From: Candidatus Nomurabacteria bacterium
GTDB lineage: Bacteria; Patescibacteriota; Minisyncoccia; Phycocordibacterales; UBA918
DNA length: 64,000 bases
Direction: 5' to 3'
Assembly (NCBI GenBank): GCA_020632095.1
Contig: JACKGF010000001.1
Location: 70,549 to 134,548, forward strand
Position 1 is the first letter of the stretch; each line of letters starts with the position of its first letter. The translations under genes were made by a program, and so were the position numbers. Shown piece after piece: positions 4,852 to 56,535 of this stretch. The notes below the pieces were generated by a model. That model saw only the letters and a program-made list of their open reading frames with translations, was not told the origin of the DNA and did not search any database.

Positions 4852-5436
4852 ATGGAACAACTACTGCAACTACCACCCAGTGATGAAGAATTGGTAAAAA
4901 AGACCCTAGAAGACAAAAACTTCTTTGGTGAGCTTGTTGATCGGTATGAAGCCAAGTTGACTCGTTATATAAATCGGCTCGGGATTCGTAATCCGGATGA
5001 TCAATTAGATGTTTTGCAGGAAATCTTTTTGAAAACCTACCGCAATCTAAATGCTTTTGATTCTTCATTAAAATTTTCCTCTTGGGTATACCGGATAGCG
5101 CACAACGAAGCTATTAGCTGGTACCGTAAAAAGAATGTCAGACCCGAAGGACATCTAATCGCGGAAAGTGAGGAAATTATTTCTTTTTTGTCGGCGGGGG
5201 AGGAAGTGGCTGATGTGGCTTTTGATAAATCTATCAATGCTAGTGTAGTTAACGAGGCTTTGGCTAAAATTGACGATAAATACCGCGAGGTATTGATCTT
5301 GCGCTTTTTTGAGCATAAGGAGTACGACGAAATATCTGACATTTTAAAAATACCAGTTGGCTCGGTCGGAACTCTGATTCATCGTGGCAAAAAACAATTA
5401 GCCAATGTCCTAAACCCAGATGCCTTACGTATATAA
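4852..5436 (+). CDS. ECF-subfamily RNA polymerase sigma-70 factor (sigma-24 type)
   Basis: Region 2 (LQEIFLKTYRNLNAFD...FSSWVYRIAHNEAISWYRKK) and region 4 HTH (REVLILRFFEHKEYDEISDILKIPVGSVGTLIHRGKKQL). Confidence 0.85.
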   Translation: MEQLLQLPPSDEELVKKTLEDKNFFGELVDRYEAKLTRYINRLGIRNPDDQLDVLQEIFLKTYRNLNAFDSSLKFSSWVYRIAHNEAISWYRKKNVRPEGHLIAESEEIISFLSAGEEVADVAFDKSINASVVNEALAKIDDKYREVLILRFFEHKEYDEISDILKIPVGSVGTLIHRGKKQLANVLNPDALRI

Positions 5437-10809: not shown

Positions 10810-11253
10810 ATGAGTAAAACTTCTGAGACAAAAGTTTCTTCAGTGTCTCCGGCTGTAATCGGACCTGAAAATAAGCGAAATCTCTACGCCTCGCAACCGG
10901 CTGCCGGCTTCCCCGCTCCTGGCGATGATTTAGTAGAAAAAGCTTTAGACTTGAATGATTTATTGATTGATAACCCTACCGCTACTTTTTTTGTGCGGGT
11001 GTCTGGCGACTCGATGGAAGATGCCAAGATATTTGCTGGTGATATTTTAGTGATTGATCGGTCAGTTGAGCCAAAATCAGGCATGATTGTAGTAGCGGCT
11101 GTTTATGGTGAGCTAGTGGTGAAAATCCTGCAAAAAACCAACTCCGGATTAGCGCTAATCTCAGCCAGCGAAAACTACGAACCAATTTTAATCAATGATG
11201 AAGAAGGCTGCTTTATCTGGGGTGTGGTTGTAGGTAGTGCACGGGTTTTTTAA
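10810..11253 (+). CDS. umuD: UmuD-like S24 peptidase (LexA C-terminal-domain fold without a DNA-binding domain)
   Basis: Ser-Lys dyad context (FFVRVSGDSMED...GDILVIDRS...GELVVKIL) and a candidate Ala-Gly cleavage site (PAAGFP). The N-terminus has no wHTH, so this is not LexA. Confidence 0.75.
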   Translation: MSKTSETKVSSVSPAVIGPENKRNLYASQPAAGFPAPGDDLVEKALDLNDLLIDNPTATFFVRVSGDSMEDAKIFAGDILVIDRSVEPKSGMIVVAAVYGELVVKILQKTNSGLALISASENYEPILINDEEGCFIWGVVVGSARVF

Positions 11254-11399: not shown

Positions 11400-14300
11400 A
11401 TGAGACGATCGACCGTCGGTTTTTGTGTAATGTTATTGGCTGTTTTTGGTGTCACGGCTGTTACGCTCCAACCAGATTTTGTCATTCAAGATTTTACCTT
11501 ACGTTCTTCACCTATTCCAGCTATCCTCTATCAACAACCTCTCCTGCAAGCCTCCAGCAACGTACCTACCCCAACCCCAGCTTCCAATCTGGTCTCGATT
11601 CAGTCTCAAGGAGTTACTCAAGCCGATCTCAACAATCGTATTACCGGTCTACTTCTACATATGCACTGGTTATTGAATGATAGAGGACAATCAGCTACTG
11701 TCTCTACCACTCGCACTAACTCTTCCGAATCAAAACGAATCGACCGTCTCGAACGCCAAATCTTCAGTTTCATGGACGAATCAGACGATGATCGCTCAGA
11801 CTTGTCTGACGATATCACTAACGGTGGCTCTTTCCTCAATCCAACTCTCACTACAGCTACTCTCAATGGCACCACCACCGCCGGAGCATTCATTGTGAAT
11901 GGTCGGCTCGGCGTCGGTACTTCTTCACCAGTCGAGCGACTATCAATCAACGGCGCTGTCTATCTAGCCGACACCACTCCCACCAACTCCGCCTCCCGTC
12001 TATACAACACCGCTGGTGGTCTCTATTGGAATGGTTCCTTAGTTGCTGGTGGAGCAGTTGGTAGCTGGACTGGTAGTGGTGGTAATGTTTATCGAGCGAG
12101 TGGGAATGTGGGGATTGGGACGAGTGCACCTGACAAGTTGTTGCATATAAAATCACAGTCCGGTGTTTATCGGTCCCAGATTAGTATAGATGATTCCGCT
12201 AATAATAGTGGATATGCGCGGATAGATTATAATACTGATGATTCAATAAGCTGGAATGCCGGTGTTTATTCAACAAATAGTAGTCCAGATAGAGGGTTTG
12301 CTGTTTCAAATAATTATTCTGGATGGAAGGATCTGCTTAGTGTGAGCCCAAATGGTAATGTTGGCATCGGCACCACCTCATCCCTTGCCAAACTCTCTGT
12401 TAAAGGCAGTGGAACCGGCACCGGCCGTGCTTTTAGTATTACTGATTCTACCAACGTAGAAAAGTTCACTGTGCTGGATAATGGGAAAGTTGTACTGAGT
12501 GGTCGGCAGACTATATACAACGCCGACGCAACTGGTTTTTTAAACTCACTGTACTTTGGTGACGGAGGAGGAAGTTTGTCTCATACATCAGGTAGTGAAG
12601 GGTACGACAATACAGCTGTAGGTATAGGTGCTCTTTATTTTAATACTATTGGTTCTAGTAATACTGCAAATGGCTTAAATAGTTTGTACAGTAACACTAC
12701 AGGCAGTAATAACTCTGCAAATGGCGTAAATAGTTTATTTTATAATACTACAGGCAACAACAATACGGCCAATGGATTCCGTACATTGGAAGCAAACACT
12801 ATCGGTTATAACAATACCGCCAATGGAGCGTATGCTCTTTTGCTTAATACGACCGGAAGCCAAAATACAGCGAACGGTATAACCTCTCTCTATTCTAATA
12901 CCACAGGTTCTAACAACGTGGCTAATGGTATGGAGTCTCTCTACTGGAATACCGTAGGTTACGACAACACTTCAAATGGCGCATATTCACTTTACTTCAA
13001 CATCACTGGTTATTCCAATACCGCAAATGGAAAGCATGCACTTTACTCTAACACTTCTGGATATTACAACACAGCAAACGGAGTTAATGCCGGTCGTTAT
13101 CTTGCAGACGGCACAACAGCCAACCAAACTTCAAGCAACTCCGTGTTTGAGGGTTATGACACCAGAGCTTTAACTGCTAGTGGAACAAATGAAATCGTCA
13201 TTGGAGCCAGCGCCATTGGAAACGGAAGTAACAGCGCCACTCTGGGTAACGATTCTATAACAAAGACGATATTGAAAGGGAGTGTAGGCATCGGCACCAC
13301 TTCACCCCTCGCCAAGCTCTCTGTTACAGGCAGTGGTACCGGCACCGGCCGCGCTTTTAGTATCACTGATTCTGCTAATGCAGAAAAGTTCACTGTACTG
13401 GATAATGGGAATTTAGGGATTGGGACGTCAGTGCCAGAAGGTAAACTCACAGTGAACGGTTCTACAAGTGATACTCCTGGGTCAAATTCACTCTTAACTC
13501 TGTACGCAGGTACTGGGAAATGGGTACAGCGAATTGATTCATCTGGTAACTTAAATTTTGATTCCAACAACGGTGCTAGTATGTACTCCTGGGTGACGAT
13601 AAATAGAGTTGGCAACGTCGGCATCGGCACCACTTCACCCCTCGCCAAACTCTCTGTTAAAGGCAGTGGTACCGGCACCGGCCGCGCTTTTAGTATTACT
13701 GATTCTACCAACGTAGAAAAGTTCACTGTACTGGATAATGGGAATGTGGGGATTGGTACTTCAATTCCTACTGTTCCTTTAGAAGTAATAGCAAAAAGTC
13801 TTAATAAAGGATTGAGAATAACTCGTGACTCCACCAATAACAGTACATTGGAATTTGCAGAAATCGGTGGCATACAGGCGCGTATTTATGGTATCGGTGC
13901 ATCGTCTGCAGGACAGATGGCTTTCCTTACTGGGTCTGGGGGTGGATCTGAGGCAATGAGAATTACTGATACAGGCAATGTTGGTATAGGTACTTCAAGT
14001 CCTAAGACTGCCCTACAAGTCGGAGTGTCAACAGATAATTACGGAGTTTCAGCCTTCACTAAATTGTATACTTCGGGAGGCGGGATACGTGTCGGTTCAG
14101 CGTCTGGGAGCGATTATGGTTATAGAATCGTGAGGGATCCAGGAAGTATATTTGCTCCGGAGTTAAACGGGGATCTTGTATTCATCGGTGATCAAGCGAA
14201 TTCTTTTGGTAATTATGCGTTTTTAAACCAATCAGGCAGTGTTCTCTTAAGAATCCTTGGTGGTGGCAACGTCGGCATCGGCACCACCTCACCCCTTGCT

Positions 14301-16604
14301 AAGCTCTCTGTTAAAGGCAGTGGTACTGGCGCTGGCCGTGCTTTTAGTATCACCGATTCTGCTAATGTTGAAAAATTCACTGTGTTGGATAATGGGAATG
14401 TTGGGATTGGGGCTTCCGTCCCTGGAGCAAAACTAGATATTATTGATGAGTCTCAGCAAGGGTTGCTAACGGCGTTGCGACTAGGAGGTCAAGTTGCCGA
14501 TGATGGGGGTCGTTCTATTGATTTTAGTACGGCAAGTGCACTGAATACTTTTCTTACTGGCGCTCGAATTTCTGGGGTAAGGCACGGCGGTGCTTGGGGG
14601 TCACTCAGATTTTCTACACTAGGAGCTGACGGTCTCCAAGAGCGAGTCCGGTTTAGTCCAGATGGTAGTGTTGGTATTAGTACGACAACTCCGAATGCAA
14701 GACTTTCGATTGTGGGGTCTGGTGCTTCGGTTGTTACCAAGGCACTTCTTGTTTCGGATTCGAATAATGTGCCTTATGTTGTTGCGCATGATGAAGGGGG
14801 AGTTACTATTGGAAAACAAATGATTGTCACTTCCTTGTATACACTTGATGTTGGTGGTTCAGGCGATCAGTTTATTCGGTTAAAATCAATGGATAATGCT
14901 GGAAACGCTGGTGTTAATTTTAGTGGCGCAGGAGACAGGGGTTCCATTTATGGAACATTCGACTACAATATTAAAATAGAACCTAATGCACAGTATGGTT
15001 ATGCAGATGTGATTATAAATCCCAAAAATGGAAGCGCTACTCGGCTTGGTATACTCGATTCAACCCCTGACTTCGGTATTGAATCAGCCGCCACTTCCTC
15101 AAAAGGGTATTTCGGTATTTCGTCTACAGCCGGTGCTGATGGCGATATTTTCATGATTGATCCGAGTGGGAATATGGGAGTTGGGACGACTAGTCCAGGG
15201 GCGAAGTTGGATGTTGCAGGTAATGTATTGTTAGGACGAGGTGGCTTAATAGATACTCAACGCACTCTTTCAATAACTGGGGCAAAGCAAAGCTCTGGTG
15301 CAGACTACGCTCGTGTCGACTTTAAGAACTACGATCAAAATGGATCGTTAGGTGAATATGTTGGTGCCAGAATTAGTTCAGAAAATGCTGCTGGAGCAGA
15401 ATACGGCGACTTACGCTTTTGGACCCGCTCATCAACAATGCGAACCAATCCAGATATGATACTAAATAGTGCAGGAAACGTCGGCATCGGCACCACTTCA
15501 CCACTTGCCAAACTCTCTATTGCTGGTAATGGAACCGGCACCGGCCGCGCTTTTAGTATTACTGATTCTACCAACGTAGAAAAGTTCACTGTACTGGATA
15601 ATGGGAATGTGGGGATTGGGACAACGACGCCGGGGGCTAAGTTGGCAATTAGTGGCGGTAATATTAGGCTTGATAGTGATAGGAAACTTGAGTGGAATTA
15701 TGGATGGGAATATCTTTATGCAAATACATCTTCGGGAAACATCACTGCTTCTGTGAGAACAGGTTTAATTGTTAATGCGGACAACAACGATAACGACCTT
15801 CCTACGCATGTTGAATTTTCGGTACGATCAGGAAGTGCATTATCGGAGTTGTTTAGAATACAAAAGAACGGTAACGTCGGCATCGGGACCACCTCCCCCA
15901 ACAGCGCCCTCGACGTCATTGGTACTATTCAAGCTTCAAACCTACTCGGTGGGGCGGTCAATCTCACCACTGACGCCAACGGAAACATTATACGCGACCC
16001 ATCTGACGCTCGATTGAAGGAAAACATTCAAGAAATCTCTAATCCTCTCGATAAACTACTTAGTCTTCATGGTGTCTCGTATCAATGGAAAGACAAAGAG
16101 CGCTTTGGTGAACAGACAGAAATCGGATTTATTGCTCAAGAAGTTGACTCAATCCTACCTGAAGTAGTGCGCAAAGGCGGTGAATACTTCTCCCTCAACA
16201 CCCGCAACATTTTAGCGGTGGTAATAGAAGGCTTTAAGGAATTGTACGCCAAAGTAATGAGAAATTCCGATAAGATTGATTTGCTTGAACAGCAAAATGC
16301 ATCTTTAGAGCAAAATAATGTCGAACTAGAAACCCGACTCGAAGCCCTGGAAGCTCAGCTAAATGTTACTCCACCGGCACCGGTAGTGGTAGAAGATGAA
16401 GATGAACCGGAACAAGAAGAAACGAATCAGGATGAAGGGTCTGATAGTGCGAACCAAGAGGAAACAGAAGTTGCTGAAGAAGATGGTCTCGAGCCGATAG
16501 AAATAGTTCAAGATGAAGTGGAAGAAGAAACGCCCGCACTTACTACAGAGGAGCCTGAGGCGGATGAAGCTGAAGTTGTGCCAGAGACTGAAATTTCTGA
16601 ATAG
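11400..16604 (+). CDS. 1734-aa phage tail-fibre-like repeat protein with a C-terminal peptidase-S74 intramolecular chaperone domain, then a coiled coil and an acidic tail
   Basis: The repeated motif NVGIGTTSPLAKLSVKGSGTGTGRAFSITDSTNVEKFTVLDNGNVGIGT occurs at least 6 times. The C-terminal signature DARLKENIQEISNPLDKLLSLHGVSYQWKD...EIGFIAQEVDSILPEVV matches PF13884 / peptidase S74. Confidence 0.75.
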   Translation: MRRSTVGFCVMLLAVFGVTAVTLQPDFVIQDFTLRSSPIPAILYQQPLLQASSNVPTPTPASNLVSIQSQGVTQADLNNRITGLLLHMHWLLNDRGQSATVSTTRTNSSESKRIDRLERQIFSFMDESDDDRSDLSDDITNGGSFLNPTLTTATLNGTTTAGAFIVNGRLGVGTSSPVERLSINGAVYLADTTPTNSASRLYNTAGGLYWNGSLVAGGAVGSWTGSGGNVYRASGNVGIGTSAPDKLLHIKSQSGVYRSQISIDDSANNSGYARIDYNTDDSISWNAGVYSTNSSPDRGFAVSNNYSGWKDLLSVSPNGNVGIGTTSSLAKLSVKGSGTGTGRAFSITDSTNVEKFTVLDNGKVVLSGRQTIYNADATGFLNSLYFGDGGGSLSHTSGSEGYDNTAVGIGALYFNTIGSSNTANGLNSLYSNTTGSNNSANGVNSLFYNTTGNNNTANGFRTLEANTIGYNNTANGAYALLLNTTGSQNTANGITSLYSNTTGSNNVANGMESLYWNTVGYDNTSNGAYSLYFNITGYSNTANGKHALYSNTSGYYNTANGVNAGRYLADGTTANQTSSNSVFEGYDTRALTASGTNEIVIGASAIGNGSNSATLGNDSITKTILKGSVGIGTTSPLAKLSVTGSGTGTGRAFSITDSANAEKFTVLDNGNLGIGTSVPEGKLTVNGSTSDTPGSNSLLTLYAGTGKWVQRIDSSGNLNFDSNNGASMYSWVTINRVGNVGIGTTSPLAKLSVKGSGTGTGRAFSITDSTNVEKFTVLDNGNVGIGTSIPTVPLEVIAKSLNKGLRITRDSTNNSTLEFAEIGGIQARIYGIGASSAGQMAFLTGSGGGSEAMRITDTGNVGIGTSSPKTALQVGVSTDNYGVSAFTKLYTSGGGIRVGSASGSDYGYRIVRDPGSIFAPELNGDLVFIGDQANSFGNYAFLNQSGSVLLRILGGGNVGIGTTSPLAKLSVKGSGTGAGRAFSITDSANVEKFTVLDNGNVGIGASVPGAKLDIIDESQQGLLTALRLGGQVADDGGRSIDFSTASALNTFLTGARISGVRHGGAWGSLRFSTLGADGLQERVRFSPDGSVGISTTTPNARLSIVGSGASVVTKALLVSDSNNVPYVVAHDEGGVTIGKQMIVTSLYTLDVGGSGDQFIRLKSMDNAGNAGVNFSGAGDRGSIYGTFDYNIKIEPNAQYGYADVIINPKNGSATRLGILDSTPDFGIESAATSSKGYFGISSTAGADGDIFMIDPSGNMGVGTTSPGAKLDVAGNVLLGRGGLIDTQRTLSITGAKQSSGADYARVDFKNYDQNGSLGEYVGARISSENAAGAEYGDLRFWTRSSTMRTNPDMILNSAGNVGIGTTSPLAKLSIAGNGTGTGRAFSITDSTNVEKFTVLDNGNVGIGTTTPGAKLAISGGNIRLDSDRKLEWNYGWEYLYANTSSGNITASVRTGLIVNADNNDNDLPTHVEFSVRSGSALSELFRIQKNGNVGIGTTSPNSALDVIGTIQASNLLGGAVNLTTDANGNIIRDPSDARLKENIQEISNPLDKLLSLHGVSYQWKDKERFGEQTEIGFIAQEVDSILPEVVRKGGEYFSLNTRNILAVVIEGFKELYAKVMRNSDKIDLLEQQNASLEQNNVELETRLEALEAQLNVTPPAPVVVEDEDEPEQEETNQDEGSDSANQEETEVAEEDGLEPIEIVQDEVEEETPALTTEEPEADEAEVVPETEISE
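12357..12485 (+). repeat. intragenic near-identical ~130-bp direct repeat, copy 1
   Basis: The sequence aatgttggcatcggcaccacctcatcccttgccaaactctctgttaaaggcagtgg...ctggataatggg is shared at over 90% nucleotide identity with copies 2-5. Confidence 0.8.
13284..13409 (+). repeat. intragenic ~130-bp repeat, copy 2
   Basis: Near-identical to copy 1. GC content is higher than the surrounding gene body. Confidence 0.8.
13614..13755 (+). repeat. intragenic ~130-bp repeat, copy 3
   Basis: Near-identical to copy 1. Confidence 0.8.
14268..14410 (+). repeat. intragenic ~130-bp repeat, copy 4
   Basis: Near-identical to copy 1. Confidence 0.8.
15477..15620 (+). repeat. intragenic ~130-bp repeat, copy 5. 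A partial sixth copy lies at about 15876-15905.
   Basis: Near-identical to copy 1. Confidence 0.8.
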
Positions 16605-16669: not shown

Positions 16670-16957
16670 TCACATCTGATTGGGCCAACGTAGTGAGGTA
16701 TGCAAGATACGAATTATGTAAATTTCATCTTCACTTACCTTGTAGGCAATAATATAAGGAGTATTAGAAAGTACCAGTTCTCGAGTATTCTTTACGGGAC
16801 CGATGCGACCTGAAAGTGGAGCGTTTAAGAGTTGAGTATGTATCGCATTGTAAATACGGGTTACCACTTTTATTGCAGCCACTTTATTGTCACGTTCTAT
16901 GTATGAATGAATTATTTCTAAGTCGTGTTTAGCCGGTTTAGTCCAATGTATTTCCAT
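16670..16957 (-). CDS. RelE/ParE-family type II toxin
   Basis: A 95-aa basic protein with the RelE/ParE-like pattern (IEIHWTKPAKHDLEIIHSYI...YRIIY-like tail). It sits 3 nt downstream of an RHH antitoxin gene. Confidence 0.7.
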   Translation of the reverse strand: MEIHWTKPAKHDLEIIHSYIERDNKVAAIKVVTRIYNAIHTQLLNAPLSGRIGPVKNTRELVLSNTPYIIAYKVSEDEIYIIRILHTSLRWPNQM

Positions 16958-16960
16958 AGG

Positions 16961-17209
16961 TTATTTGAGAGACTTTATCCAAGCGGCCACCTCATCGTCA
17001 CTCACAAGTTCTCCACGATCAGCTGCAGCGACACCACGTTCGATTTCTCCAGATAGCCAATCTTGATGAGAAACGTACTGCTCTAGTGCTTCTGCTACCA
17101 AAGAAGAGCGACTACGATTAGTCGCTTTAGCTAGTCGTGCTAGTCGAGTACGAGTCTCGGCGTCAGTCCGCACGGAGATAATCGCATCATTTTTAGTTTT
17201 TGTACTCAT
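16961..17209 (-). CDS. RHH (CopG/ParD-like) antitoxin. The ORF extends to 17239; the likely start is MSTKTK at 17209.
   Basis: Ribbon-helix-helix region (ISVRTDAETRTRLARLAKATNRSRSSLVAEALEQYV), paired with the toxin directly downstream. Confidence 0.6.
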   Translation of the reverse strand: MSTKTKNDAIISVRTDAETRTRLARLAKATNRSRSSLVAEALEQYVSHQDWLSGEIERGVAAADRGELVSDDEVAAWIKSLK

Positions 17210-17375
17210 ATGTATACATATTACTACAAATAATATCATTATTCAATAATTAGAAATTAGATCGTGGACGAAGCATAGTTTTCAACAAAATTAAGTGTTA
17301 AAAAGGTGGTATCTCCAAAGCCGCCTTTTTAATACACCTCTTGCGCCCCCCCTACACTTGCTAGAATATACACAT

Positions 17376-20990: not shown

Positions 20991-22247
20991 ATGAAAACCT
21001 GGATTGGGGTGTTGGATTGCAATAATTTCTTTGTATCGTGCGAACGGTTGTTTCGTCCGGACTTACGTAACAAACCAGTGGTGGTACTGTCGAGTAATGA
21101 TGGTTGTGTGGTGGCACGCTCACAAGAGGTAAAGGACATGAATGTCCCTATGGGTGTCCCTTACTTTAAGATAAAAGACACGCTAAAAAAGGCTGATTCT
21201 ACAACCTTTTCTTCACACTTTGCTTTATACCGAGATATTTCTAGAAGAGTGTTTGAGGTGATGCGTGATGAGCTCGAAAACGTTGAACAATACTCGATTG
21301 ACGAGGCTTTTTTCTTATTCAAGGGTTCTGAAAAAGCAGTGTCTGAGCTAGCAAAAAGAGTGAGAGCGGCAGTTGAATTGCAGGTTGGGATACCAGTTTC
21401 AGTCGGGGTGGGTTACTCAAAAACTCAAGCCAAGTATGCCAATTTTTTAGCTAAAAAGAGTAAAGGAGTGTGTGTTTTGAATTCAAGAAAGTGGTTAAAA
21501 ATTGCTCCAGAAGTACCCTTATCAAGGCTTTGGGGAGTGGGCAGGAGACTGGATCTTAACTACAAAAAACATGGTTTGTTGACTGTGGCAGATGTGTTAA
21601 CAGCTGACAATTCACGTCTGGATCAGTTGTTTGGAATAGTAGGAATGCGATTAAAACAAGAGTTGTCTGGCGTAGCAATCTATGGGTTTGAGGGTAGGAT
21701 TGATGTTAAACAAAGCATTACGAGCTCGCGGTCATTTGGAAATACTACCAATGATTTACCAGTTTTGGCTGATGCTTTGGCTTATCATACTCGTCATGCG
21801 TTAGTAGATTTGCGAGCTATGGCAAGATATGTTTCGGTAGTGACAGTGTCAATTGGGACTAGCAGATATGGAGATTTTTTACTAAAAGGGAGGTCTAAGA
21901 AGATATTTTTGGAGAAACCAACTAATGATACTTTGGTTGTTTTAAAAGAGGTAAATAAGGCCTTGGTAGAGTTATTTGAGTCTGGCGTGCCGTACAAAAA
22001 AGCGGGGGTTACTTTGTCGCAGTTTAGTCCAATTGATGCCTATCAAAACAGTTTATTTTCTAATAACAACGAATCAGTAACCCAGTCATTGATGCCTGTT
22101 TTAGATTCGATAAATCTCAAGGCTGGCAGGGAAGTGGTGCTGGTCGGCAGTCGTCTGCAGAGTAATAATTGGCAGTCTTTATCAGACTCAAAATCACCAG
22201 CCTATACGACAAGATGGAAAGATTTGTTTACAGTGAAGGCAAAATAA
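20991..22247 (+). CDS. umuC: Y-family translesion DNA polymerase (UmuC/DinB-like)
   Basis: N-terminal palm motif LDCNNFFVSCE (compare DCDAFYASVE), SIDEAFF, and a little-finger region. It is divergent from the NUDIX gene across a 29-bp spacer. Confidence 0.8.
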   Translation: MKTWIGVLDCNNFFVSCERLFRPDLRNKPVVVLSSNDGCVVARSQEVKDMNVPMGVPYFKIKDTLKKADSTTFSSHFALYRDISRRVFEVMRDELENVEQYSIDEAFFLFKGSEKAVSELAKRVRAAVELQVGIPVSVGVGYSKTQAKYANFLAKKSKGVCVLNSRKWLKIAPEVPLSRLWGVGRRLDLNYKKHGLLTVADVLTADNSRLDQLFGIVGMRLKQELSGVAIYGFEGRIDVKQSITSSRSFGNTTNDLPVLADALAYHTRHALVDLRAMARYVSVVTVSIGTSRYGDFLLKGRSKKIFLEKPTNDTLVVLKEVNKALVELFESGVPYKKAGVTLSQFSPIDAYQNSLFSNNNESVTQSLMPVLDSINLKAGREVVLVGSRLQSNNWQSLSDSKSPAYTTRWKDLFTVKAK

Positions 22248-25417: not shown

Positions 25418-27325
25418 ATGAAAGCGGTGTACGAAAAATGGACACTTTGGCTAGTGATTTTCTTCTTTGTAATAGTTGGAGTCTTTGTGTTTTCTCCACA
25501 GGTTACTAATGCTCTCAAGATCAATGAGTACAAAGACACTCTTAGTGACTCAGGTCCGCTTGAGCAAGCTAACCATACTTTTGACTTTGTTTTAAATACT
25601 GATGTATCACCAGGTGGAATTTTTGAAATTACTCCGCCAGCCGGTTTTACTGTTCTTTCGACTACTACTTTCGCTGAAAGAAACGTTGAACTCTTGGTTA
25701 ATGGGTCGGCTCGAACCGCGGGTACTGTAGCTGCACCAGGAGTAGATCAGGTAGAAATTACGGCTGGTTCACCGGGATTTTTTAGATACACACTGGCTCC
25801 GGATTCCGGGTTAACATCGGGCAGTCGTCTTAAGTTTAAAATCGGAAATCATACCTCAAATTCAGTAATGTCATCAGTCACCTTTAGTACATCTACTGGG
25901 ACCACTACTAATCCAGGAGATGTTGAACCGATAGTAAATTCGGGCATAACAGGCAAGCATGATGTTAAATTGGAAGTTTATGACGGTGGTTTAGTAGCAA
26001 ATGCTAACTTCGTGATTTTTTTAAATGAGAAGGTTAGTGTACCAAATATTGACACTACTGAGGAAATTCCACCTTTTCGCTTTGGCGGTTCGCCGACCAG
26101 TTCGGTGGGAGGAACTACTCTTTTTGTGGAGATCGGTTTAGAAACTGATGAGTTTGCGATCTGTAAATATAGTACAGTTGCCGATATTCCTTTTGGGTCT
26201 ATGTCAGATACTTTTTCTAACACTGGTCTAGTTTTTCATACCACTGTTGTACAGGTAGTTCCAAATTCATTAGCGCAGTTTTATGTTAGATGTATTGACG
26301 ATGAAGGAAATTTCAATATTGACGATTACTTAATTGCGTTTACCGTTAATGATATACCGACTGGAACGTCGAATACTGATGGTAATGTGGACGGAGATGG
26401 CACAGGTACTGGAAATGATGGTACTGGCTCAGGTGGTGGCGGTGGCGGGACGAGCGGTTCTTCTGATGGAGAAGCTCCAACTGAAGGTGGTACTAGTGGC
26501 GGTGGCGGATCAGGAGGTGGAGGAGGAGGTGGTTCAGGTGGTGGCTCTGGATCAACGGCTGGGGGCGGTTTCGAAAGTACAAGTGCACCCTATAGAAGTG
26601 GTGATGGTAGAGTAATTATTTCTGGATATGCCTATCCAAATAGCACAGTCAGTATTTTGGTTGATGGAAATTTCTTTGATACCACGAAAGCAAGTAATTT
26701 AGGTGTATACTCAATTACTTTAGATGAAATTGCTCGCGGAGTTTATACTTTTGGGGTTTATGCCCAAGGTTCTAACAATATAAAATCATCAACTTTTAGT
26801 ACCTCCTTTACTGTAACAGGTGCAAGAACTTCTGCTCTTGGTAATATCAACGTCTCTCCATCAATTCTGGTGGCTCCAAATCCTGTTCAACCAGGAGAGG
26901 TACTTACTGTATCCGGTTTTTCTTTACCAAATGCAAAAGTGACAATTCAAAATGGACGTCTAAAATCCAGTGTAGCAAATAAAGAATATGAGGTTCAGTC
27001 AGACAGCCAAGGTCGCTGGTCTACTACGATTGATACCACAGGCTTTACGGTGGATACATATCAAGTTAGAGCTAAGGCCGAACAGGAGGGTGGAGCAGTG
27101 ACTCATTATTCTGACTATACTTTTTACGGAGTGGGTCAGAAGGCAGATTTACCAATTAATACTGATTTGAATCGAGATGGTAAGGTTAATCTAATCGACT
27201 TCTCAATTATGCTTTTCTGGTGGAACACAAATGGTGGAGATTCAGATCCACCAGCAGATATTAACCGGGACGGGAAGGTGAGTTTGACGGATTTTTCTAT
27301 ACTTCTTTTCAATTGGACTGGGTAG
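25418..27325 (+). CDS. secreted protein with Gly-rich linker, Ig-like domains and a C-terminal dockerin-like double repeat. The ORF track starts at TTG 25391.
   Basis: Signal anchor. Poly-Gly/Ser linker, then C-terminal DLNRDGKVNLIDFSIMLF...DINRDGKVSLTDFSILLFNWTG (two DxNxDGxVNxxD repeats of the dockerin type). Confidence 0.6.
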   Translation: MKAVYEKWTLWLVIFFFVIVGVFVFSPQVTNALKINEYKDTLSDSGPLEQANHTFDFVLNTDVSPGGIFEITPPAGFTVLSTTTFAERNVELLVNGSARTAGTVAAPGVDQVEITAGSPGFFRYTLAPDSGLTSGSRLKFKIGNHTSNSVMSSVTFSTSTGTTTNPGDVEPIVNSGITGKHDVKLEVYDGGLVANANFVIFLNEKVSVPNIDTTEEIPPFRFGGSPTSSVGGTTLFVEIGLETDEFAICKYSTVADIPFGSMSDTFSNTGLVFHTTVVQVVPNSLAQFYVRCIDDEGNFNIDDYLIAFTVNDIPTGTSNTDGNVDGDGTGTGNDGTGSGGGGGGTSGSSDGEAPTEGGTSGGGGSGGGGGGGSGGGSGSTAGGGFESTSAPYRSGDGRVIISGYAYPNSTVSILVDGNFFDTTKASNLGVYSITLDEIARGVYTFGVYAQGSNNIKSSTFSTSFTVTGARTSALGNINVSPSILVAPNPVQPGEVLTVSGFSLPNAKVTIQNGRLKSSVANKEYEVQSDSQGRWSTTIDTTGFTVDTYQVRAKAEQEGGAVTHYSDYTFYGVGQKADLPINTDLNRDGKVNLIDFSIMLFWWNTNGGDSDPPADINRDGKVSLTDFSILLFNWTG

Positions 27326-27500
27326 GGTATACAGCTTGGCTTATGCGATTCGGGTTTACGTTCCAGCAGAATTAAGTAAGCAAAGGGAGGGAGTGAGTTT
27401 GACGGATTTTTCTATACTTCTTTTCAATTGGACTGGGTAGGGTATACAGCTTGGCTTATGCGTTCGGGTTTACGTTCCAGCGAATTAAGTAAGCAAAGGA
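27281..27500 (+). repeat. tandem duplication (2 copies of ~113 bp) spanning the stop codon of 25418..27325
   Basis: The unit gagtttgacggatttttctatacttcttttcaattggactgggtagggtatacagcttggcttatgcg(a)ttcgggtttacgttccagc(a)gaattaagtaagcaaagg occurs at 27281-27388 and again at 27395-27500. Confidence 0.8.
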
Positions 27501-27627
27501 ACGTAGTGACTATTGCGAACTTATGTCAGAATTTGCTCTGCCCTTGGGCAAATTCTGACTGCTCTAGGCAAAGCAAATCTCGGCAGCTTGCTACATGCTT
27601 TTTTCTCCTTTGGAAGTCTAAAAATCT
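27426..27627 (+). repeat. ~200-bp repeat, near-identical to 63615..63815
   Basis: Both copies read aattggactgggtagggtatacagcttggcttatgcgttcgggtttacgttccagcgaattaagtaagcaaaggaacgtagtgactattgcgaac...ctcctttggaagtctaaaaatc. They differ by a single T indel. Confidence 0.85.
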
Positions 27628-27793
27628 GCTACAAGTTATGCTACTCGTATTTTTAAATTTCACTACGTCCTGAAAAGCTTGGCTTATAAGTTCACTTTGC
27701 ATAGTAAAAATTAGTCGTAGTTATGCTACTCGTATTTTTAAACAAAGCAAATCTCAAACTAAATTCACAATAGTCACTACGTTCCTTTGTTCA
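27490..27793. mobile_element. MITE-like non-coding element (~304 bp) bounded by ~26-bp terminal inverted repeats
   Basis: Left end caaaggaacgtagtgactattgcgaa (27494-27519). Right end ttcacaatagtcactacgttcctttg (27764-27789) is its reverse complement at 25/26 positions. The interior has no ORF, a 10-bp hairpin, and an internal direct repeat ttatgctactcgtatttttaaa. Confidence 0.4.
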
Positions 27794-28270
27794 TTTATCA
27801 AATTGGACTGGGTAGGGTATACAGTTTGGCTTATGCGTTGGAGTTTACGTTCCTTGGCTTATACGTTCCTTTGTTCGGGTTTACGCTTATGCGTTCGGGT
27901 TTACGTTCCAGCGAATTAAGTAAGCAAAGGAACGTAGTGGTCAGAATTTGCTCAAGGCAGAGCAAATTCTGACATACAAAATTATAGTCATTACATTCCT
28001 TAATTTTTGCAACTATTGCGAACTTGTATCAGAATTTGTTGCTGAGAAATAATGCCTGAAGAGATTGTGTTTACGTTGTAAAAACTCATCTAAAATTAGT
28101 ACTGTTAACTATACTAATTTTTAACCAGTAATTTAGAGTTGGTTTGTTTTTGTGTGAGATAGAGGATTTTGCGATTTAGTCTAGGTAAACAAGAATAATG
28201 AGATTGAGTAATTTTTGTATACAAGTAGTCGCTTGCGTTTGGTTTACGTTCTTGTGATTTGCTTAGATGG
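27794..28270. repeat. degenerate, rearranged copies of the same intergenic repeat family
   Basis: Repeated motifs gcgttcgggtttacgttcc, gcgttggagtttacgttcc and gcgtttggtttacgttctt; hairpin gtcagaatttgctc/gagcaaattctgac at 27936-27975; partial TIR at 28009-28024. Confidence 0.6.
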
Positions 28271-28322
28271 GGCTGTGGGTAAGCTTGAAAATATTTAGTA
28301 TTCACTTGTATAATGTATTGGT

Positions 28323-28796
28323 ATGTCCTTTCTTCAAAGACTCAAAGGCCGCGGTGTTAGAAACGATGAAGCTTCATTGCAGTCTGATGCTGAGGAGACC
28401 GCTGTCGACAAAGTCGCACAGCTTCATGTTGATGTTTACCAAACCGAGAGAATGATTGTTGTGTATGCTCAATCAGCTGGCGCAGATATGAATGACGTTC
28501 ATGTTTCAATTGAAGGTGATGCCGATATCGTATTAATTGAAGGGAAACGAGTTAGACCAGAATATATTGTATTTCCAAGAAAAGTAGTTAAGGGTGCGTT
28601 TGTAGCCGAGGAGTGTGTCTGGGGAGATTTTTATCGCAGAATCATTTTACCAGAAAGTGTTAATATAGATAAAGCTGAGGCAAAGATTAAGAACGGTGTT
28701 TTAATATTAGTTTTACCATTACTCAAGCCAAACGAAAAAGAAAAGGTTCAGTTAAAAGTAGTTGGAAGTCCAAATCCAAGGAAGCGAAGCAGTTAA
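28323..28796 (+). CDS. Hsp20/alpha-crystallin-family small heat-shock protein
   Basis: Alpha-crystallin domain pattern: LHVDVYQTERMIVVYAQSAG...DVHVSIEGDADIVLIEGKR...GDFYRRIILPESVNIDKAEAKIKNGVLILVLP. Confidence 0.8.
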   Translation: MSFLQRLKGRGVRNDEASLQSDAEETAVDKVAQLHVDVYQTERMIVVYAQSAGADMNDVHVSIEGDADIVLIEGKRVRPEYIVFPRKVVKGAFVAEECVWGDFYRRIILPESVNIDKAEAKIKNGVLILVLPLLKPNEKEKVQLKVVGSPNPRKRSS

Positions 28797-28813: not shown

Positions 28814-30355
28814 ATGTTGCACCTTTTGAAAAAATCTACGCACCTGATAGCTACAATATTTTTTGTTGTTATATTTGTATTTCTACCACGTACTTATGTA
28901 GAAGCGGCTGATTTACTTCTGTCTCCAGGCACTGGTTCTTACTCAGCCGGTCAAACTTTTACAGCGACCGTTAGAGTGGTCCCTTCAGGCGATAGTGTCA
29001 ACGCCGTTGAAGCGGCATTAACTTTCGACCCGTCGGTTTTGTCAGTGGTTAGTGTTAGTAAAGATGGTTCGGTTTTTTCTCTTTGGACAACAGAGCCAGC
29101 TTTTTCAAATTCAAAAGGCACAATTGAGTTTGGTGGAGGAAGTCCTACTCCTTTCACTAATACTTCAAACATTTTAAATGTTACCTTTAGAACAGTTAAA
29201 GAAGGAGCGGGAGCGGTATCTTTTTCAAAAGGCTCAGTTCTGGCAGCTGATGGTAAAGGAACTGATGTCTATAAAAATTCCACTGGTGCTACCTATACTG
29301 TTGCTGCCGCCACTACCCCATCTCCAACTCCAACTCCATCTCCAACTCCAACTCCTAAGCCTGAAGAAACTACTGATTCAGGGGATGGAGGGGAAGCAAT
29401 TATTTTTGGTGACCCACCGCGCCCACCAGAAATTGGCTCTCAAACTTTTCTTGAACCTGAGGTTTGGTACAACATAACTAAAGGCATCTTCACTTGGACA
29501 CTACCATTTGATGTGAGTGAAGTGGCCGTTGAGATTTCAGATAATCCAGAAAATGTACCTCAAGACAATAAAGAAGCAATTAAAGTTCCTCCTGTCGAAG
29601 AATTTGCAATTTCACCTGAGGTGATTAAGGACGGTGTGCAGTACGTTAGTATTAATTTCAAAAACCAGGTTGGATGGGGAGCGGTAGTAAACCGTAAGCT
29701 TCAAATTGACACGACTGCTCCAGAACCGTTTGCAATTAATGTTAGAGCTGGTACAACTCAAAATTCATTCCCACTACTTAATTTCGAGGCTCGTGACGTA
29801 ACTTCAGGAATTCAGTATTACGATATGACTGTAGCTGATAAGGAGCCACTTCGAATTACTCCCGACGAAGCTCGTCTTGGATACATGTTGAAGGAACTTG
29901 AGGATGGTACCTATACAATAAAAGTGATTGCTACCGACATGGCCGGTAATACTCGAGAAAGTAGTGTCGCAGTCTTGATCACAGCCGGTTGGGTAAAGCC
30001 TGTTGAGGTGGTTGATGAAGGTTCTTTCTGGGACTTCCTGACAGCACTCAATTTATTTATTTTCTTCTTGCTTGTTGTGATTGTTCTGCAGGTAGTCTAC
30101 TTCTGGTACGAACACAAAGCTTTAAAGGAAAAGGAAGAAAAGTTACGAAGAGAGACACGTGAGATTCAGGACCAGATGGAGAAAATATTTTCAGCTTTGC
30201 GTGATGAAATTTACGACCAAATTAACACCATCACTAAACGAAAAAGATTATCTGCCAAGGAAAAGGAGGCTGTTGAAGGATTGACTCAGGCCCTAGAAGT
30301 GTCAGAAACCTTGATAGAGAAGGAAATCAATGATGTGAAGACAATTCTTAAGTAA
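28814..30355 (+). CDS. surface protein with signal/TM, TP-repeat linker, a TM helix and a C-terminal cytoplasmic coiled coil; hypothetical
   Basis: N-terminal hydrophobic anchor, TPSPTPTPSPTPTPKP linker, the TM helix LTALNLFIFFLLVVIVLQVVYFWY, then a K/E-rich coiled coil. Confidence 0.5.
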   Translation: MLHLLKKSTHLIATIFFVVIFVFLPRTYVEAADLLLSPGTGSYSAGQTFTATVRVVPSGDSVNAVEAALTFDPSVLSVVSVSKDGSVFSLWTTEPAFSNSKGTIEFGGGSPTPFTNTSNILNVTFRTVKEGAGAVSFSKGSVLAADGKGTDVYKNSTGATYTVAAATTPSPTPTPSPTPTPKPEETTDSGDGGEAIIFGDPPRPPEIGSQTFLEPEVWYNITKGIFTWTLPFDVSEVAVEISDNPENVPQDNKEAIKVPPVEEFAISPEVIKDGVQYVSINFKNQVGWGAVVNRKLQIDTTAPEPFAINVRAGTTQNSFPLLNFEARDVTSGIQYYDMTVADKEPLRITPDEARLGYMLKELEDGTYTIKVIATDMAGNTRESSVAVLITAGWVKPVEVVDEGSFWDFLTALNLFIFFLLVVIVLQVVYFWYEHKALKEKEEKLRRETREIQDQMEKIFSALRDEIYDQINTITKRKRLSAKEKEAVEGLTQALEVSETLIEKEINDVKTILK

Positions 30356-30445
30356 GCAAACGAGCGTAGCGACTATTGCGAACTTAGTTCTCAATTTGCC
30401 CCTTTCTTAGGGCAAATTGCTAGAACGTAAACCCGAACGCAAACG
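30353..30445 (-). repeat. inverted-orientation copy of the structured repeat unit, overlapping the stop codon of 28814..30355
   Basis: Conserved arm gcaaacgagcgtagcgactattgcgaacttag, then hairpin caatttgccc/gggcaaattg enclosed by gttct/agaac, then ctagaacgtaaacccgaacgcaaacg. This is the reverse complement of the unit seen at 63521-63614. Confidence 0.75.
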
Positions 30446-55728: not shown

Positions 55729-56076
55729 GTATAGGGGTTATATACAATTTTGTATCGCCATGTTCCAGCGATTTGGCCTTGGAATGAGCCAAATCGGGAA
55801 CTAAATTCGAAATAATCGCTCCCGCTCATTTTCTCATTTATTCGGTTGGGTTAAGAATATCAGCGGAGGAGGTTAGGTATAGGGGTTATATACAATTTTG
55901 TATCGCCATGTTCCAGCGATTTGGCCTTGGAATGAGCCAAATCGGGAACTAAATTCGAAATAATCGCTCCCGCTCATTTTCTCATTTATTCGGTTGGGTT
56001 AAGAATATCAGCGGAGGAGGTTAGGTATAGGGGTTATATACAATTTTGTATCGCCATGTTCCAGCGATTTGGCCTT
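55691..56076 (+). repeat. tandem array (about 2.6 copies of 148 bp), each copy carrying the last 36 nt plus stop of gene 54139..55728 and a structured hairpin
   Basis: Unit: ttcggttgggttaagaatatcagcggaggaggttag + gtataggggttatatacaattttgtatcgccatgttccag + hairpin cgatttggc/gccaaatcg + ggaactaaattcgaaataatcgctcccgctcattttctcattta. Copies start at 55691, 55841 and 55989. Confidence 0.85.
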
Positions 56077-56078
56077 GG

Positions 56079-56326
56079 AAGGGGAATAATATGAGTAAAA
56101 TATTTTATAGTATAGGATTTTTGACTGCGTTCGGGTTTACGTTCTAGTAATTTGCCCTAGGAAGGGGAATAATATGAGTAAAATATTTTATAGTATAGGA
56201 TTTTTGACTGCGTTCGGGTTTACGTTCTAGTAATTTGCCCTAGGAAGGGGAATAATATGAGTAAAATATTTTATAGTATAGGATTTTTGACTGCGTTCGG
56301 GTTTACGTTCTAGTAATTTGCCCTAG
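56079..56326 (+). repeat. perfect 3x tandem repeat of an 83-bp unit, each containing an SD-like GGAAGGGG and an 18-codon mini-ORF
   Basis: Unit: gaaggggaataat + ATG AGT AAA ATA TTT TAT AGT ATA GGA TTT TTG ACT GCG TTC GGG TTT ACG TTC TAG + taatttgccctag. The mini-ORFs lie at 56091-56147, 56174-56230 and 56257-56313 and encode MSKIFYSIGFLTAFGFTF. Confidence 0.85.
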
Positions 56327-56520
56327 GAAGGGGGCAAATTAAGAACTAAATTCACAATAGTCGCTACGCTCGTTTGTTCATTTAATCTTCGGTTGGGTTA
56401 AGAATATCAGCGGAGGAGGTTAGGTGCAGTGCTGATGTCCGGCGATCTGCACTTGGAGGGAGTGGGATGTGGAGTAGTTGGTAGATGTGGATTCAAACAT
56501 AAGGTTTTTTAGACATAAGA
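56327..56520 (+). repeat. further repeat-family copy plus a partial third copy of the upstream gene tail
   Basis: Conserved arm aagaactaaattcacaatagtcgctacgctcgtttgttcatttaatc, then cttcggttgggttaagaatatcagcggaggaggttagg (56386-56423), then hairpin gcagtgctgatgtccggcgatctgcac. Confidence 0.7.
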
Positions 56521-56535
56521 TGCAATAATAGTTAA

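Follow-up and report, generated by a model that had tools for sequence, protein, structure and literature searches.

A non-coding segment of ~304 bp lies at 27.5 kb in a 64,000-nt stretch of contig JACKGF010000001.1 from a Candidatus Nomurabacteria bacterium (this whole stretch is called the window), and its inverted arms raise the question of whether it is a transposable element in its own right. The original prediction took it for a MITE-like element (27490-27793) with 26-bp terminal inverted repeats (TIRs), one of a transposable family whose autonomous partner is not in the window. The arms (27494-27519 and 27764-27789) are reverse complements at 25 of 26 positions: CAAAGGAACGTAGTGACTATTGCGAA is present at 27494-27519 on the plus strand, and its reverse complement, with one mismatch, at 27764-27789. 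Other matches in the window occur at 63683-63708 (plus), 63581-63606 (minus) and 30357-30382 (plus, three mismatches), and none of 100 shuffles matched the arm sequence. The segment is real, but its borders had been placed off by ~4 nt on each side, and the inverted repeat lengthens to 55-nt arms (27486-27540 and 27743-27797) with a complementarity of 78%. The internal hairpin is present with a stem of 12 bp, not the 10 bp first given (formed by GTCAGAATTTGC at 27525-27536 and GCAAATTCTGAC at 27548-27559), and the internal direct repeat is an exact 24-nt pair (27634-27657 and 27719-27742). The right arm is, as had been noticed, identical to the 3′ tail of short units elsewhere (e.g. 63578-63614), and both arms are ends of members of one repeat family.

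The basic unit of this family measures ~85 nt (85-115 nt) and consists of a hairpin P1, a linker (NTAAATTC), a hairpin P2 and then TCAYT. P1 combines a GTYC base and a conserved AG bulge with a variable stem of 8-10 bp and a CTAGGAA-type loop, and P2 is formed by XYAA...TTY′X′ around conserved internal loops. The 3′ end is well defined (TCAYT plus 1-3 nt), and terminal inverted repeats are lacking from the basic unit. This structure is borne out by covariation: in 75 sequences, compensatory changes occur at 15 of 20 pairs. Paired cells make up 97.1% against 76.7% in shuffles, 317 double changes stand against 13 one-sided ones, and the covariation score is 0.555, whereas sliding the partners leaves no more than 0.12. 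The hairpins contain hardly any G:U pairs. Copies of one genome differ by compensatory changes, and similarity in the variable P1 region is 0.69 within genomes versus 0.58 between genomes. Rfam 15 gave no match in the whole window at the gathering threshold, none at E ≤ 5 over 55600-58200, where four full units lie, and only chance-level eukaryotic matches at a permissive threshold over 27200-28400. Units contain no sigma-70-type promoter and no intrinsic terminator; upstream of P1, -10-like hexamers show no positional peak and the 5′ flanks have no consensus. A reverse-strand mini-ORF (ATG-AXY-AAA-CGA-GCG-TAG) was considered and rejected, its second codon falling in the covarying P2 stem and its stop being lost in insertion variants.

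When the covariance model (CM) of the ~87-nt unit is applied to the 304-bp segment, the segment splits. It comprises three members of one repeat family nested in one another, with no transposon ends of its own. The segment and its surroundings comprise the following features.

27278-27507, plus strand: two 115-nt tandem units (27278-27392 and 27393-27507; repeat family D1)
27474-27483, plus strand: P1 5′ arm GTTCCAGCGA of a host unit (10-mer shared with intact units)
27484-27567, minus strand: complete ~87-nt unit (CM R1 71 bits, E 1e-14; pattern matches)
27560-27582, plus strand: what is left of the P1 loop and 3′ arm, TGCTCTAGGCAAAGCAAATC..., from the disrupted host unit (identical to 63551-63570 of an intact unit)
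27582-27752, plus strand: interior, a 'type B' relative with a longer 5′ domain and a P2-like tail (alignment with other genomes)
27729-27799, plus strand: tail-only copy with linker, P2 and TCATTTA (CM R1 46.8 bits)
27801-27815, plus strand: orphan dockerin gene end AATTGGACTGGGTAG (NWTG-stop), after the composite
27915-28013, no strand assigned: palindromic dimer of reverse-complemented tail, perfect hairpin and degenerate tail (CM 27932-28013 plus, 27915-27981 minus)

The minus-strand unit interrupts P1 of the host unit at the foot of its 5′ arm; the same 10-mer begins intact P1 hairpins at 63539-63548, 55762-55771 and 55910-55919. The tail of the minus-strand unit spans 27486-27522 and includes the left arm, and its hairpin (27525-27559) has a perfect 12-bp stem. 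The exact tail of the plus-strand copy (27761-27797) includes the right arm (27764-27789). What looks like 26-bp TIRs are the tails of these two units. Its type B interior holds an ~85-nt internal duplication, marked by the 24-nt exact repeats, which is missing in the strain contig L001 and in a version at 63.7 kb (loci from other assemblies are cited by L numbers). These two interiors align with type B in L059, L113, L057 and L114, with 54 invariant columns, and the composite interior can be aligned over its whole length with type B relatives from four other genomes. In this arrangement, a plus-strand unit lies downstream of a dockerin gene, with a type B relative between its P1 and its tail.

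The dockerin gene end itself is repeated. Each 115-nt tandem unit carries the last 48 nt of the gene, stop included, and the junction lies at an AAGG microhomology. The gene end AATTGGACTGGGTAG is found as a real gene end at 27311-27325 and 63491-63505, and again at 27426-27440, 63615-63629 and 63914-63928. The left-half copy that had been reported at 63668-63815 exists but was understated, since it continues to ~63912, and a search for further TIR-bounded copies returns it as a second full-length copy in the window (~63675-63912). In this second composite, a minus-strand unit (63673-63756) is followed by a type B interior, starting at 63771, and by a plus-strand tail that has diverged (63856-63915); 27418-27603 is 99% identical to 63607-63792 (repeat family D7). 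The remaining copies in the window are listed here.

30347-30433, minus strand: intact unit at the cohesin gene end (CM 95 bits)
55693-56425, plus strand: array after the FN3 gene (repeat search and CM)
58054-58141, plus strand: intact unit before the FtsX-type permease ORF 58141-59355 (CM 93.6 bits; Pfam)
63532-63616, plus strand: intact short unit between two dockerin gene-end copies (CM 91.7 bits)
63673-63915, no strand assigned: second composite copy (repeat search and CM)

The tail of the unit at 30347-30433 provides the TAA stop of the cohesin gene (28814-30355). The unit at 58054-58141 ends 3 nt ahead of the ATG of the FtsX-type permease gene, whose exact start is uncertain, as the gene call in L122 is shorter by 12 codons (392 aa). 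The array after the FN3 gene repeats the last 38 nt of that gene four times (at 55693, 55841, 55989 and 56388), has units at 55755-55842, 55903-55990 and 56300-56386, and shows tandem periods of 148 nt (2.6 times) and 83 nt (3.2 times) with junctions within the P1 loop. Its copy numbers are not the same in L122; L001, L004 and L122 are strain contigs of the same species, L001 coming from another sample. Array copy number thus differs between assemblies, which may in part come from repeat collapse by short-read assemblers. Short-read contigs of the same species break inside unit arrays. The window dimer at 27915-28013 lacks 16 nt that L004 carries, the dimer being intact in L004. For this neighbouring palindrome, the suggestion that inverted duplication of a unit gives rise to long forms finds support. 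The window has no tRNA or tmRNA genes.

The family is spread through the Patescibacteria (CPR). Among the matches listed, the tail pattern recovered more than 116 stretches, nearly all from Patescibacteria MAGs, and the CM search added a further 122 matches in 100 loci; the pattern gave no match in 2.9 million viral contigs. Literature searches on CPR repeats, MITEs and REP elements returned nothing relevant, and no described family was found to match. Pair and flank counts are based on ~130 tails in 116 loci among the matches listed. The majority of units stand alone or run in the same direction as one another, and direct and tail-in pairs are no rarer than tail-out pairs. Orientation relative to GC skew shows a weak bias (49:28, p = 0.02), to which the window runs opposite.

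The tail end of the unit is placed exactly at gene starts or stops. It lies ≤6 nt from an ORF boundary in 44 of 114 cases, as compared with 3 of 106 on the P1 side, and tails stand 2-6 nt before start codons. P1 lies 33-35 nt past same-strand stops in 6 of 20 cases, or in 7 if one at 38 nt is included. Relative to the flanking genes, units show no preferred orientation (24 same/same, 41 opposite/opposite and 39 mixed). Exact direct repeats of at least 12 nt (12-45 nt) flank 20 of 130 copies versus 2 of 222 controls (p = 9e-8). These flanking repeats, with an overall length of ~11-85 nt, duplicate gene ends, gene starts or the 5′ end of a tRNA, and are clear in only ~15% of copies. Around single units, the duplicated sequence is the start of DnaJ in L108, the start of pth together with its -10 box in L098, the 5′-most 17 nt of a tRNA in L092 and a gene end in L024 and L113. 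In all seven single-unit cases the intact gene is on the P1 side, which a symmetric target duplication would not predict. At the FN3-ABC and ABC-FtsX intergenic sites, the number and orientation of units differ among the window, L024, L062 and L054. Type A units sit inside type B at one identical position in four genomes, with no duplication whatsoever. Two other explanations of the repeated gene tips were rejected. A scaffold-plus-guide RNA (TnpB/omega-RNA-like) with the gene tip as guide disagrees with repeats that are in sense orientation, 11-85 nt long and preceded by no common motif at the upstream copies; translational bypass between identical gene ends disagrees with a landing copy that has the same stop codon.

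Collectively, the locus is best explained, with fair probability in our estimate, as a nested composite of a family of non-autonomous, probably mobile, structured repeats, on which slippage and recombination act secondarily. Insertion is what the flanking repeats suggest. Units would be copied in by a trans-acting enzyme that is not encoded nearby; insertion would be anchored at the tail end and would leave a long target duplication of variable length. This duplication would be what allows a unit to land in the tip of a gene without killing it. The hairpins probably act as single-stranded DNA, because G:U-type pairs are almost absent. Where several units come together, hairpin slippage or recombination would generate tandem arrays, palindromic dimers and composites, and traces of such secondary rearrangements are seen in the 115-nt tandem with its microhomology junction, in the 148- and 83-nt arrays and in the 16-nt indel between the window and L004. 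The earlier claim of a transposable family thus keeps its footprints of mobility for the family as a whole and loses the 304-bp segment as a MITE.

No partner enzyme was found in the sequence covered. By Pfam on all long ORFs, the window has no transposase, reverse transcriptase, HUH enzyme or recombinase, and the autonomous partner is missing from it, as had been claimed. No autonomous element with the same TIRs lies in the window or between the unit pairs of L044, L049, L054 and L069, where Pfam identifies the ORFs between pairs as ribosomal proteins, ThrRS, FtsX and ABC proteins. Clustering of 1278 ORFs from the 116 loci (8-kb samples per genome) gave only recurrent families that look like housekeeping ones, as judged by leading residues and by Pfam on a handful, and no RAYT gene was seen beside units in the same samples.

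An unlikely reading, with which the lack of a partner enzyme in the 116 loci agrees, holds that the units are immobile and constitute a host-functional structured motif of Patescibacteria at gene boundaries, the duplicated tips and arrays being produced only by hairpin slippage or recombination. The motif could be, for example, a signal for processing or stabilising mRNA, a 5′ or 3′ UTR element, or a site where single-stranded DNA serves in replication or recombination. Conservation of sequence and structure across a class-level radiation, together with the presence of units at matching intergenic positions in different genera (in L061, L072, L081 and L111 upstream of efp; between ABC and FtsX; and within the S10 operon between rplW and rplB), would fit host function as well as mobility. 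The exact spacing to start codons and same-strand stops points the same way, as do the compensatory differences within genomes, which look as if each copy were kept folded. A cis-acting RNA, however, is hard to reconcile with units that show no orientation preference relative to genes; almost no G:U pairs occur and neither a promoter nor a terminator signal is found. Nested copies destroy each other's P1, and, by CM, no unit copy exists in the first 27 kb of the window despite many intergenic regions. Finally, single units between duplicated gene starts or copies of a tRNA 5′ end resemble insertion scars.

It is very improbable that the 304-bp segment is a true MITE, moved whole through its 26-bp TIRs by a transposase encoded elsewhere, with the short units as its solo ends. 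The 25/26 match of the arms, for which the chance expectation is 0, and the second full-length copy at 63.7 kb speak for it. So do the ~105-nt palindrome of reverse-complemented tail, hairpin and tail in L004, whose architecture recurs in L107, and a tail-out pair 406 nt apart in L062, the only such pair within 450 nt besides the composite among the ~130 tails in 116 loci listed. Against this, no target-site duplication is found at the borders (GCGAAT and TCAAAT), and the flanks GTTCCAGCGAAT and TCAAATTGGACTG share no direct repeat. Every copy of the composite (at 27.5 kb, at 63.7 kb and in L001) stands after one and the same dockerin gene-end repeat, so that independent transposition is shown by none of them. 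Furthermore, the interior itself belongs to the repeat family, and the units, mostly solitary or directly oriented, have no TIRs of their own. A pattern specific to the composite junction had no match in JGI metagenomes, a weak test, since this organism is apparently missing from them. The simple explanation that the original prediction set against itself, neighbouring short units in opposite orientation, applies for the most part, although that explanation had been coupled to the lack of any other TIR-bounded copy, and one exists at 63.7 kb. A chimeric join of repeat-containing reads is hardly credible: same-species short-read contigs do end within arrays and the independent contigs L001 and L122 have other unit numbers, but the left 186 nt of the composite occur twice in the window (99%) and, with unchanged junctions, also in L001, which comes from a different sample, and unrelated genomes carry the same kinds of nesting.

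For the preferred reading of nested and probably mobile repeats, it is tempting to go further, albeit speculatively, and to propose that the unit represents a small mobile element of a class not yet described and limited to Patescibacteria. Such an element would be copied in by a process anchored at its 3′ end, either target-primed (SINE-like) or a new single-strand DNA route, with target duplications of ~11 to >80 nt, and would depend on a new or repurposed enzyme encoded elsewhere in the genome. If this were true, units could settle in the tips of essential genes and of tRNA and 5S rRNA genes in tiny, tightly packed genomes, and these genes would stay active. CPR genomes are small and usually thought to be poor in mobile DNA, and a structured repeat common to dozens of CPR lineages is unexpected. 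In practice, units break short-read assemblies and create spurious stop and start calls at the ends of genes, among them those at 30353-30355 (cohesin stop) and at 58141 (FtsX start). If units are mobile, their long and variable duplications imply an insertion chemistry almost without bacterial precedent; if they are immobile, they constitute a class-wide DNA or RNA signal in organisms that still cannot be cultivated on their own. With the covariance model and the flanking-repeat test, both mobility and a host signal can be tested directly on closed CPR genomes and metatranscriptomes.

Several known systems resemble the units in part. PATEs derived from IS200/IS605 have similar subterminal hairpins at both ends, insert 3′ of a fixed tetra- or pentanucleotide and make no target duplication; the units have one P1-type hairpin each, no 5′-flank consensus and long flanking repeats, and are not of this type. 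Integron attC arrays have R/L boxes (GTTRRRY), uniform orientation and nearby intI and attI, and are likewise rejected by a P1 foot of GTYCCAG, mixed orientations and a window with no integrase. Diversity-generating retroelements combine a ~100-nt TR/VR pair differing at adenines with a nearby reverse transcriptase; here, the gene-end duplicates are 15-48 nt long, identical or differing at non-A sites, and the window has no reverse transcriptase. TIGR arrays of CPR genomes, which also consist of hairpin units and to that extent recall the units that are sometimes arrayed, have variable dual spacers in unpaired regions and short conserved box C/D motifs, and lie beside a Tas gene with a Nop domain (PMC12045711; bioRxiv 10.64898/2026.09.09.750476). 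The CPR units are dispersed, their unpaired regions are conserved and no Nop-domain match occurs among the window ORFs, and a TIGR-Tas array is thus rejected. With MIRUs and pneumococcal BOX elements, the units share a modular build and tandem, copy-number-variable intergenic copies over flanking stops and starts; they differ in having no conserved mini-ORF (variants break the frame) and in their unrelated sequence and structure.

The MITEs Correia (Neisseria), RUP, ERIC and Nezha are likewise short intergenic elements that code for nothing and exist in many copies; they can provide stop codons and occur within transcription units, and the composite has TIR-like arms as they do. The CPR unit departs from them by the absence of TIRs and of a short target duplication of fixed length, and by unequal ends, the 3′ end being precise and the 5′ side variable. 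To our knowledge, IS1634/IS1549 is the sole bacterial precedent for target duplications both long and variable. These are DDE insertion sequences of 1.5-2 kb with TIRs, whereas CPR units are non-coding and ~85-115 nt long; no such transposase or TIR accompanies the units, and only the long, variable duplication is common to both. The direct repeats of IS1634/IS1549 are long and vary from 8 to 514 bp (PMC2266710).

SINE-type retroposition resembles the units in the absence of TIRs, the defined 3′ end, the variable target duplications and the presumed need for an enzyme encoded elsewhere. Tail-only copies could be 5′-truncated copies, and the tail end (reverse complement AATGA) has microhomology to start and stop codon contexts. 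In contrast to SINEs, the CPR unit has no poly(A) or simple-repeat tail and no partner reverse transcriptase was found; the scarcity of G:U pairs also argues against selection for an RNA fold. We know of no SINE-like element of this kind in bacteria. REP/BIME/REPIN elements, mobilised by RAYT Y1-HUH transposases, differ in other respects. A REP unit measures 20-40 nt with a GTAG-type tetranucleotide, and the CPR unit, at ~85 nt, is 2-3 times longer, has two hairpins with conserved unpaired bases and a GTYC foot with an AG bulge, and is conserved class-wide rather than within one group of species; REPs are not marked by long flanking duplications. The likeness is nevertheless broad. Both are small, non-coding, extragenic hairpin units present in many copies per genome, and as short extragenic imperfect palindromes found singly and in inverted doublets the CPR units agree with that part of the definition of REPs. 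Both also occur in tandem, cluster at gene ends and inside operons, and keep their structure through strictly Watson-Crick changes, which suggests recognition as single-stranded DNA.

The 304-bp segment at 27490-27793, originally predicted to be a MITE-like element with 26-bp terminal inverted repeats, is a by-product of a family of small structured repeats. When the window copies are aligned with matches found in other genomes, a unit (type A) of ~85 nt emerges, with the following successive parts:

Hairpin P1: foot GTYC; invariant C-AG bulge on the 5' side; variable 8-10-bp stem; loop usually CTAGGAA
Linker: NTAAATTC
Hairpin P2: XYAA-TAGTC-GC-T(N)AC-GC-TCGT-TTY'X'
3' end: TCAYT plus 1-3 nt

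Compensatory changes occur in 15 of the 20 unit pairs, with 317 double changes versus 13 one-sided. Paired cells amount to 97.1% in the unit versus 76.7% in shuffles, and the covariation score is 0.555 versus at most 0.12 with partners slid by one to three columns. G:U-type pairs are nearly absent from both hairpins, a situation unusual for RNA families, suggesting that the hairpins may act at the DNA level. Rfam 15 gave no family match, even at E<=5 over a stretch with four full units.

The window resembles a Patescibacteria (CPR) genome: most of its genes are on the plus strand, and they include a 7799-aa ORF and genes for dockerin and cohesin proteins. Scanned over the whole window with filters off, a covariance model of the unit (R1) retrieved eight complete copies and several partial ones, none in the first 27 kb. 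The predicted element occupies part of a 0.8-kb spacer, filled with repeats, that separates a dockerin gene (stop at 27325) from an Hsp20 gene, and similar clusters are found as follows:

30347-30433: after the cohesin gene
55693-56425: after the FN3 gene
57860-58141: after the ABC ATPase gene
63491 to window end: after the second dockerin gene

The 7799-aa ORF (30734-54133, + strand) is a single ORF with internal repeats and precomputed hits to DUF2341 and a faint pentaxin-like domain; repeat units occur on either side (30347-30433 and 55755 onward). The repeat-free first part holds a LexA-like S24 peptidase (10810-11253), a UmuC/DinB-type polymerase (20991-22247) and a ParE/RHH toxin-antitoxin pair (16670-17239). 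A 1734-aa protein (11400-16604, + strand), with five internal repeats of ~160 nt and a Peptidase_S74 (endosialidase chaperone) domain at its C-terminus, recalls phage tail fibres in its architecture, here in a cellular setting.

Among GTDB representative genomes, a degenerate pattern of the tail, the conserved 3' part of the unit, matched more than 116 stretches. Matches listed come almost all from Patescibacteria MAGs, labelled Kaiserbacteria, Paceibacteria/Paceibacterota, Nomurabacteria, Parcubacteria or 'Saccharibacteria', with up to eight or nine per genome among those listed; 2.9 million viral contigs gave none. R1 detects 122 copies in 100 of the tail-matched 8-kb loci (L-numbers). In the variable part of P1, copies from one genome resemble each other more than copies from different genomes do (0.69 versus 0.58, p = 2e-6); same-genome copies nonetheless differ by compensatory changes. 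A Kaiserbacteria genome (L067 and L120) carries a further ~95-nt tandem family, GCCAGCGACAATGGCGAATTTT...CCACCAACCTGTCTCTCTAA, built round a diverged reverse-strand tail fragment.

The two unit ends differ sharply in placement. An ORF boundary is found no more than 6 nt from the tail end in 44/114 cases and from the P1 side in 3/106 (p = 1e-11), with no preferred orientation found relative to neighbouring genes. What follows the tail is either, after 2-6 nt, a true start codon (efp, recR, ftsK, ABC and FtsX genes) or a convergent gene's stop codon, in many cases provided by the unit's own TCA or TTA, as in the cohesin gene (30353-30355). On the P1 side, 6 of 20 same-strand upstream stops occur 33-35 nt before P1 and a seventh at 38 nt. 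Genes next to units look like ordinary housekeeping genes, and one unit lies between rplW and rplB. At the Hsp20 gene (window 28290-28325), a TATAAT box stands 7-8 nt before the ATG, without Shine-Dalgarno, which suggests that transcripts in this organism may be leaderless; L098 and L092 have the same layout, which bears on how units 2-6 nt ahead of start codons could be tolerated. At 57860-58050, two degenerate unit remnants each follow GGTGGTATTATAAATATAA, an extended -10-like box, and the stop of the ABC gene is directly followed by a perfect TGGGTATAAT. Across genomes, P1 is not generally preceded by a promoter.

Sequences just past the tail and upstream of P1 share a perfect direct repeat, 12 nt or longer, in 20/130 copies versus 2/222 controls (p = 9e-8). 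Several cases are single units, and thus the flanking repeats are not simply tandem arrays. Duplicated stretches include:

L108: 14 nt, including the first 11 nt of dnaJ
L092: 17 nt from the 5' end of a tRNA
L098: ~49 nt, the -10 box and first 12 codons of pth
L024: the 3'-terminal 33 nt of the FN3 gene
L113: the 3'-terminal 15 nt of a dockerin gene

In the window, dockerin units are bracketed by 15-nt gene-end copies (~50 nt including diverged downstream spacer) and FN3 units by copies of the last 38 nt of the FN3 gene. A long duplication would explain why a unit can enter the tip of an essential gene without destroying it. In L098, an orphan pth N-terminus (MFYIVGLGNHGE; 4855-5000, minus-strand view) lies beyond the unit, and the pth start copies show seven nucleotide differences, all synonymous. 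Solely synonymous differences would not arise if a dead fragment decayed neutrally; they suggest that the functional copy was later changed by allelic replacement. In L039, the start of a unit coincides exactly with the 3' end of a second 5S rRNA copy, itself interrupted; as a 22-nt repeat and a canonical terminator are both found again ~400 nt away, the duplication spans a whole 5S gene.

Unit number and orientation vary in orthologous FN3-ABC and ABC-FtsX spacers across the window, L024, L062 and L054. FN3 arrays of the window comprise 148-nt (x2.6, 100% identical) and 83-nt (x3.2, 98% identical) repeats, the latter with junctions inside the P1 loop, and each has about one copy fewer in L122, a same-species contig from another sample. 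As short-read contigs of this species end within arrays, some between-assembly differences may reflect collapse rather than biology. A 115-nt tandem duplication (27278-27392/27393-27507) has AAGG microhomology at its junction. In four genomes (L057, L075, L087 and L094), type A occurs without duplication at one identical position in the 5' domain of type B, a longer relative, between ...TATTTC and TCCCCTAGG...; either this position is a strong homing site or the composite spreads as one piece.

The precise 3' end, variable duplications of ~11-85 nt, nesting and array variability indicate that the units are probably non-autonomous, mobile or recently mobile, and acted on in trans. No enzyme was found near units, and in the long window ORFs tested Pfam detected neither a transposase nor an integrase nor a reverse transcriptase, in line with the autonomous partner predicted to lie outside the window. 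Insertion would be anchored at the tail, with the second junction placed at a variable distance from the first and the hairpins recognised as single-stranded DNA. AATGA, the reverse complement of the tail end, fits ATGA start contexts and TGA stops alike; such a match would help explain abutment to gene boundaries once selection purges intragenic insertions. Target-primed reverse transcription, through a hypothetical RNA intermediate, would leave the same footprints. Mobility leaves unexplained the clear flanking repeats in only ~15% of copies, the intact gene on the P1 side in 7/7 single-unit cases and the synonymous pth differences in L098. A host-functional motif, i.e. a processing, stabilising or priming signal, would accord with class-wide conservation, fixed spacings and occupation of the same spacers in several genera, and is plausible, if the less likely reading.

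The predicted element and its surroundings comprise:

27474-27483 and 27560-27579, + strand: GTTCCAGCGA and TGCTCTAGGCAAAGCAAATC, P1 halves of an ordinary unit (intact unit at 63539-63570)
27484-27567, - strand: complete unit copy (R1), its tail being the left 'TIR'
27729-27799, + strand: tail-only copy (R1), the right 'TIR'
27915-28013: adjoining palindromic dimer (reverse-complemented tail, perfect hairpin, tail)

Given the matching P1 halves, the minus-strand copy sits within the 5' arm of the plus-strand P1; the rest of the interior, from 27582, is a third family member. Interiors of L001 and of the 63.7-kb copy align end to end with type B of four other genomes (54 invariant columns), and that of the window has an extra ~85-nt internal duplication, not found in these two. 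The predicted inverted arms are genuine (CAAAGGAACGTAGTGACTATTGCGAA at 27494-27519, reverse complement with one mismatch at 27764-27789), extend less perfectly to 55 nt and are absent from every shuffle of the window. The internal direct repeat is likewise recovered, as a 24-nt exact pair (27634-27657/27719-27742). The interior hairpin exists as a perfect 12-bp stem (27525-27559) instead of 10 bp, and the second copy, real but taken for a left half, spans ~63675-63912 with a diverged tail at its end. The suggestion that long forms arise by inverted duplication is supported by the palindromic dimer, intact in the strain contig L004 and present in an unrelated genome (L107). A discrete MITE has little chance of being the right description, since no direct repeat flanks the segment and its copies all occur in a single context; a nest of units describes it best. 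An assembly artefact is highly improbable, given that identical junctions are seen again elsewhere in the window and in another, independent sample.

To our knowledge, IS1634/IS1549 are the only bacterial precedent for long, variable duplications. These range from 8 to 514 bp (PMC2266710), but the elements differ in being DDE insertion sequences with TIRs. The unit family does not fit MITE, PATE, attC, DGR or TIGR arrays, and no description of it was found in Rfam 15 or full-text literature searches. It works most like REP/BIME/REPIN, whose hairpin units likewise stand alone, in tandem or as inverted doublets and are found in operons and arrays and at gene ends; however, it departs from their defining size and foot motif, and no associated RAYT gene was seen in the 8-kb samples of genomes. 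Collectively, the REP-like behaviour and the differences from known families place this apparently undescribed family with small structured non-autonomous repeats.
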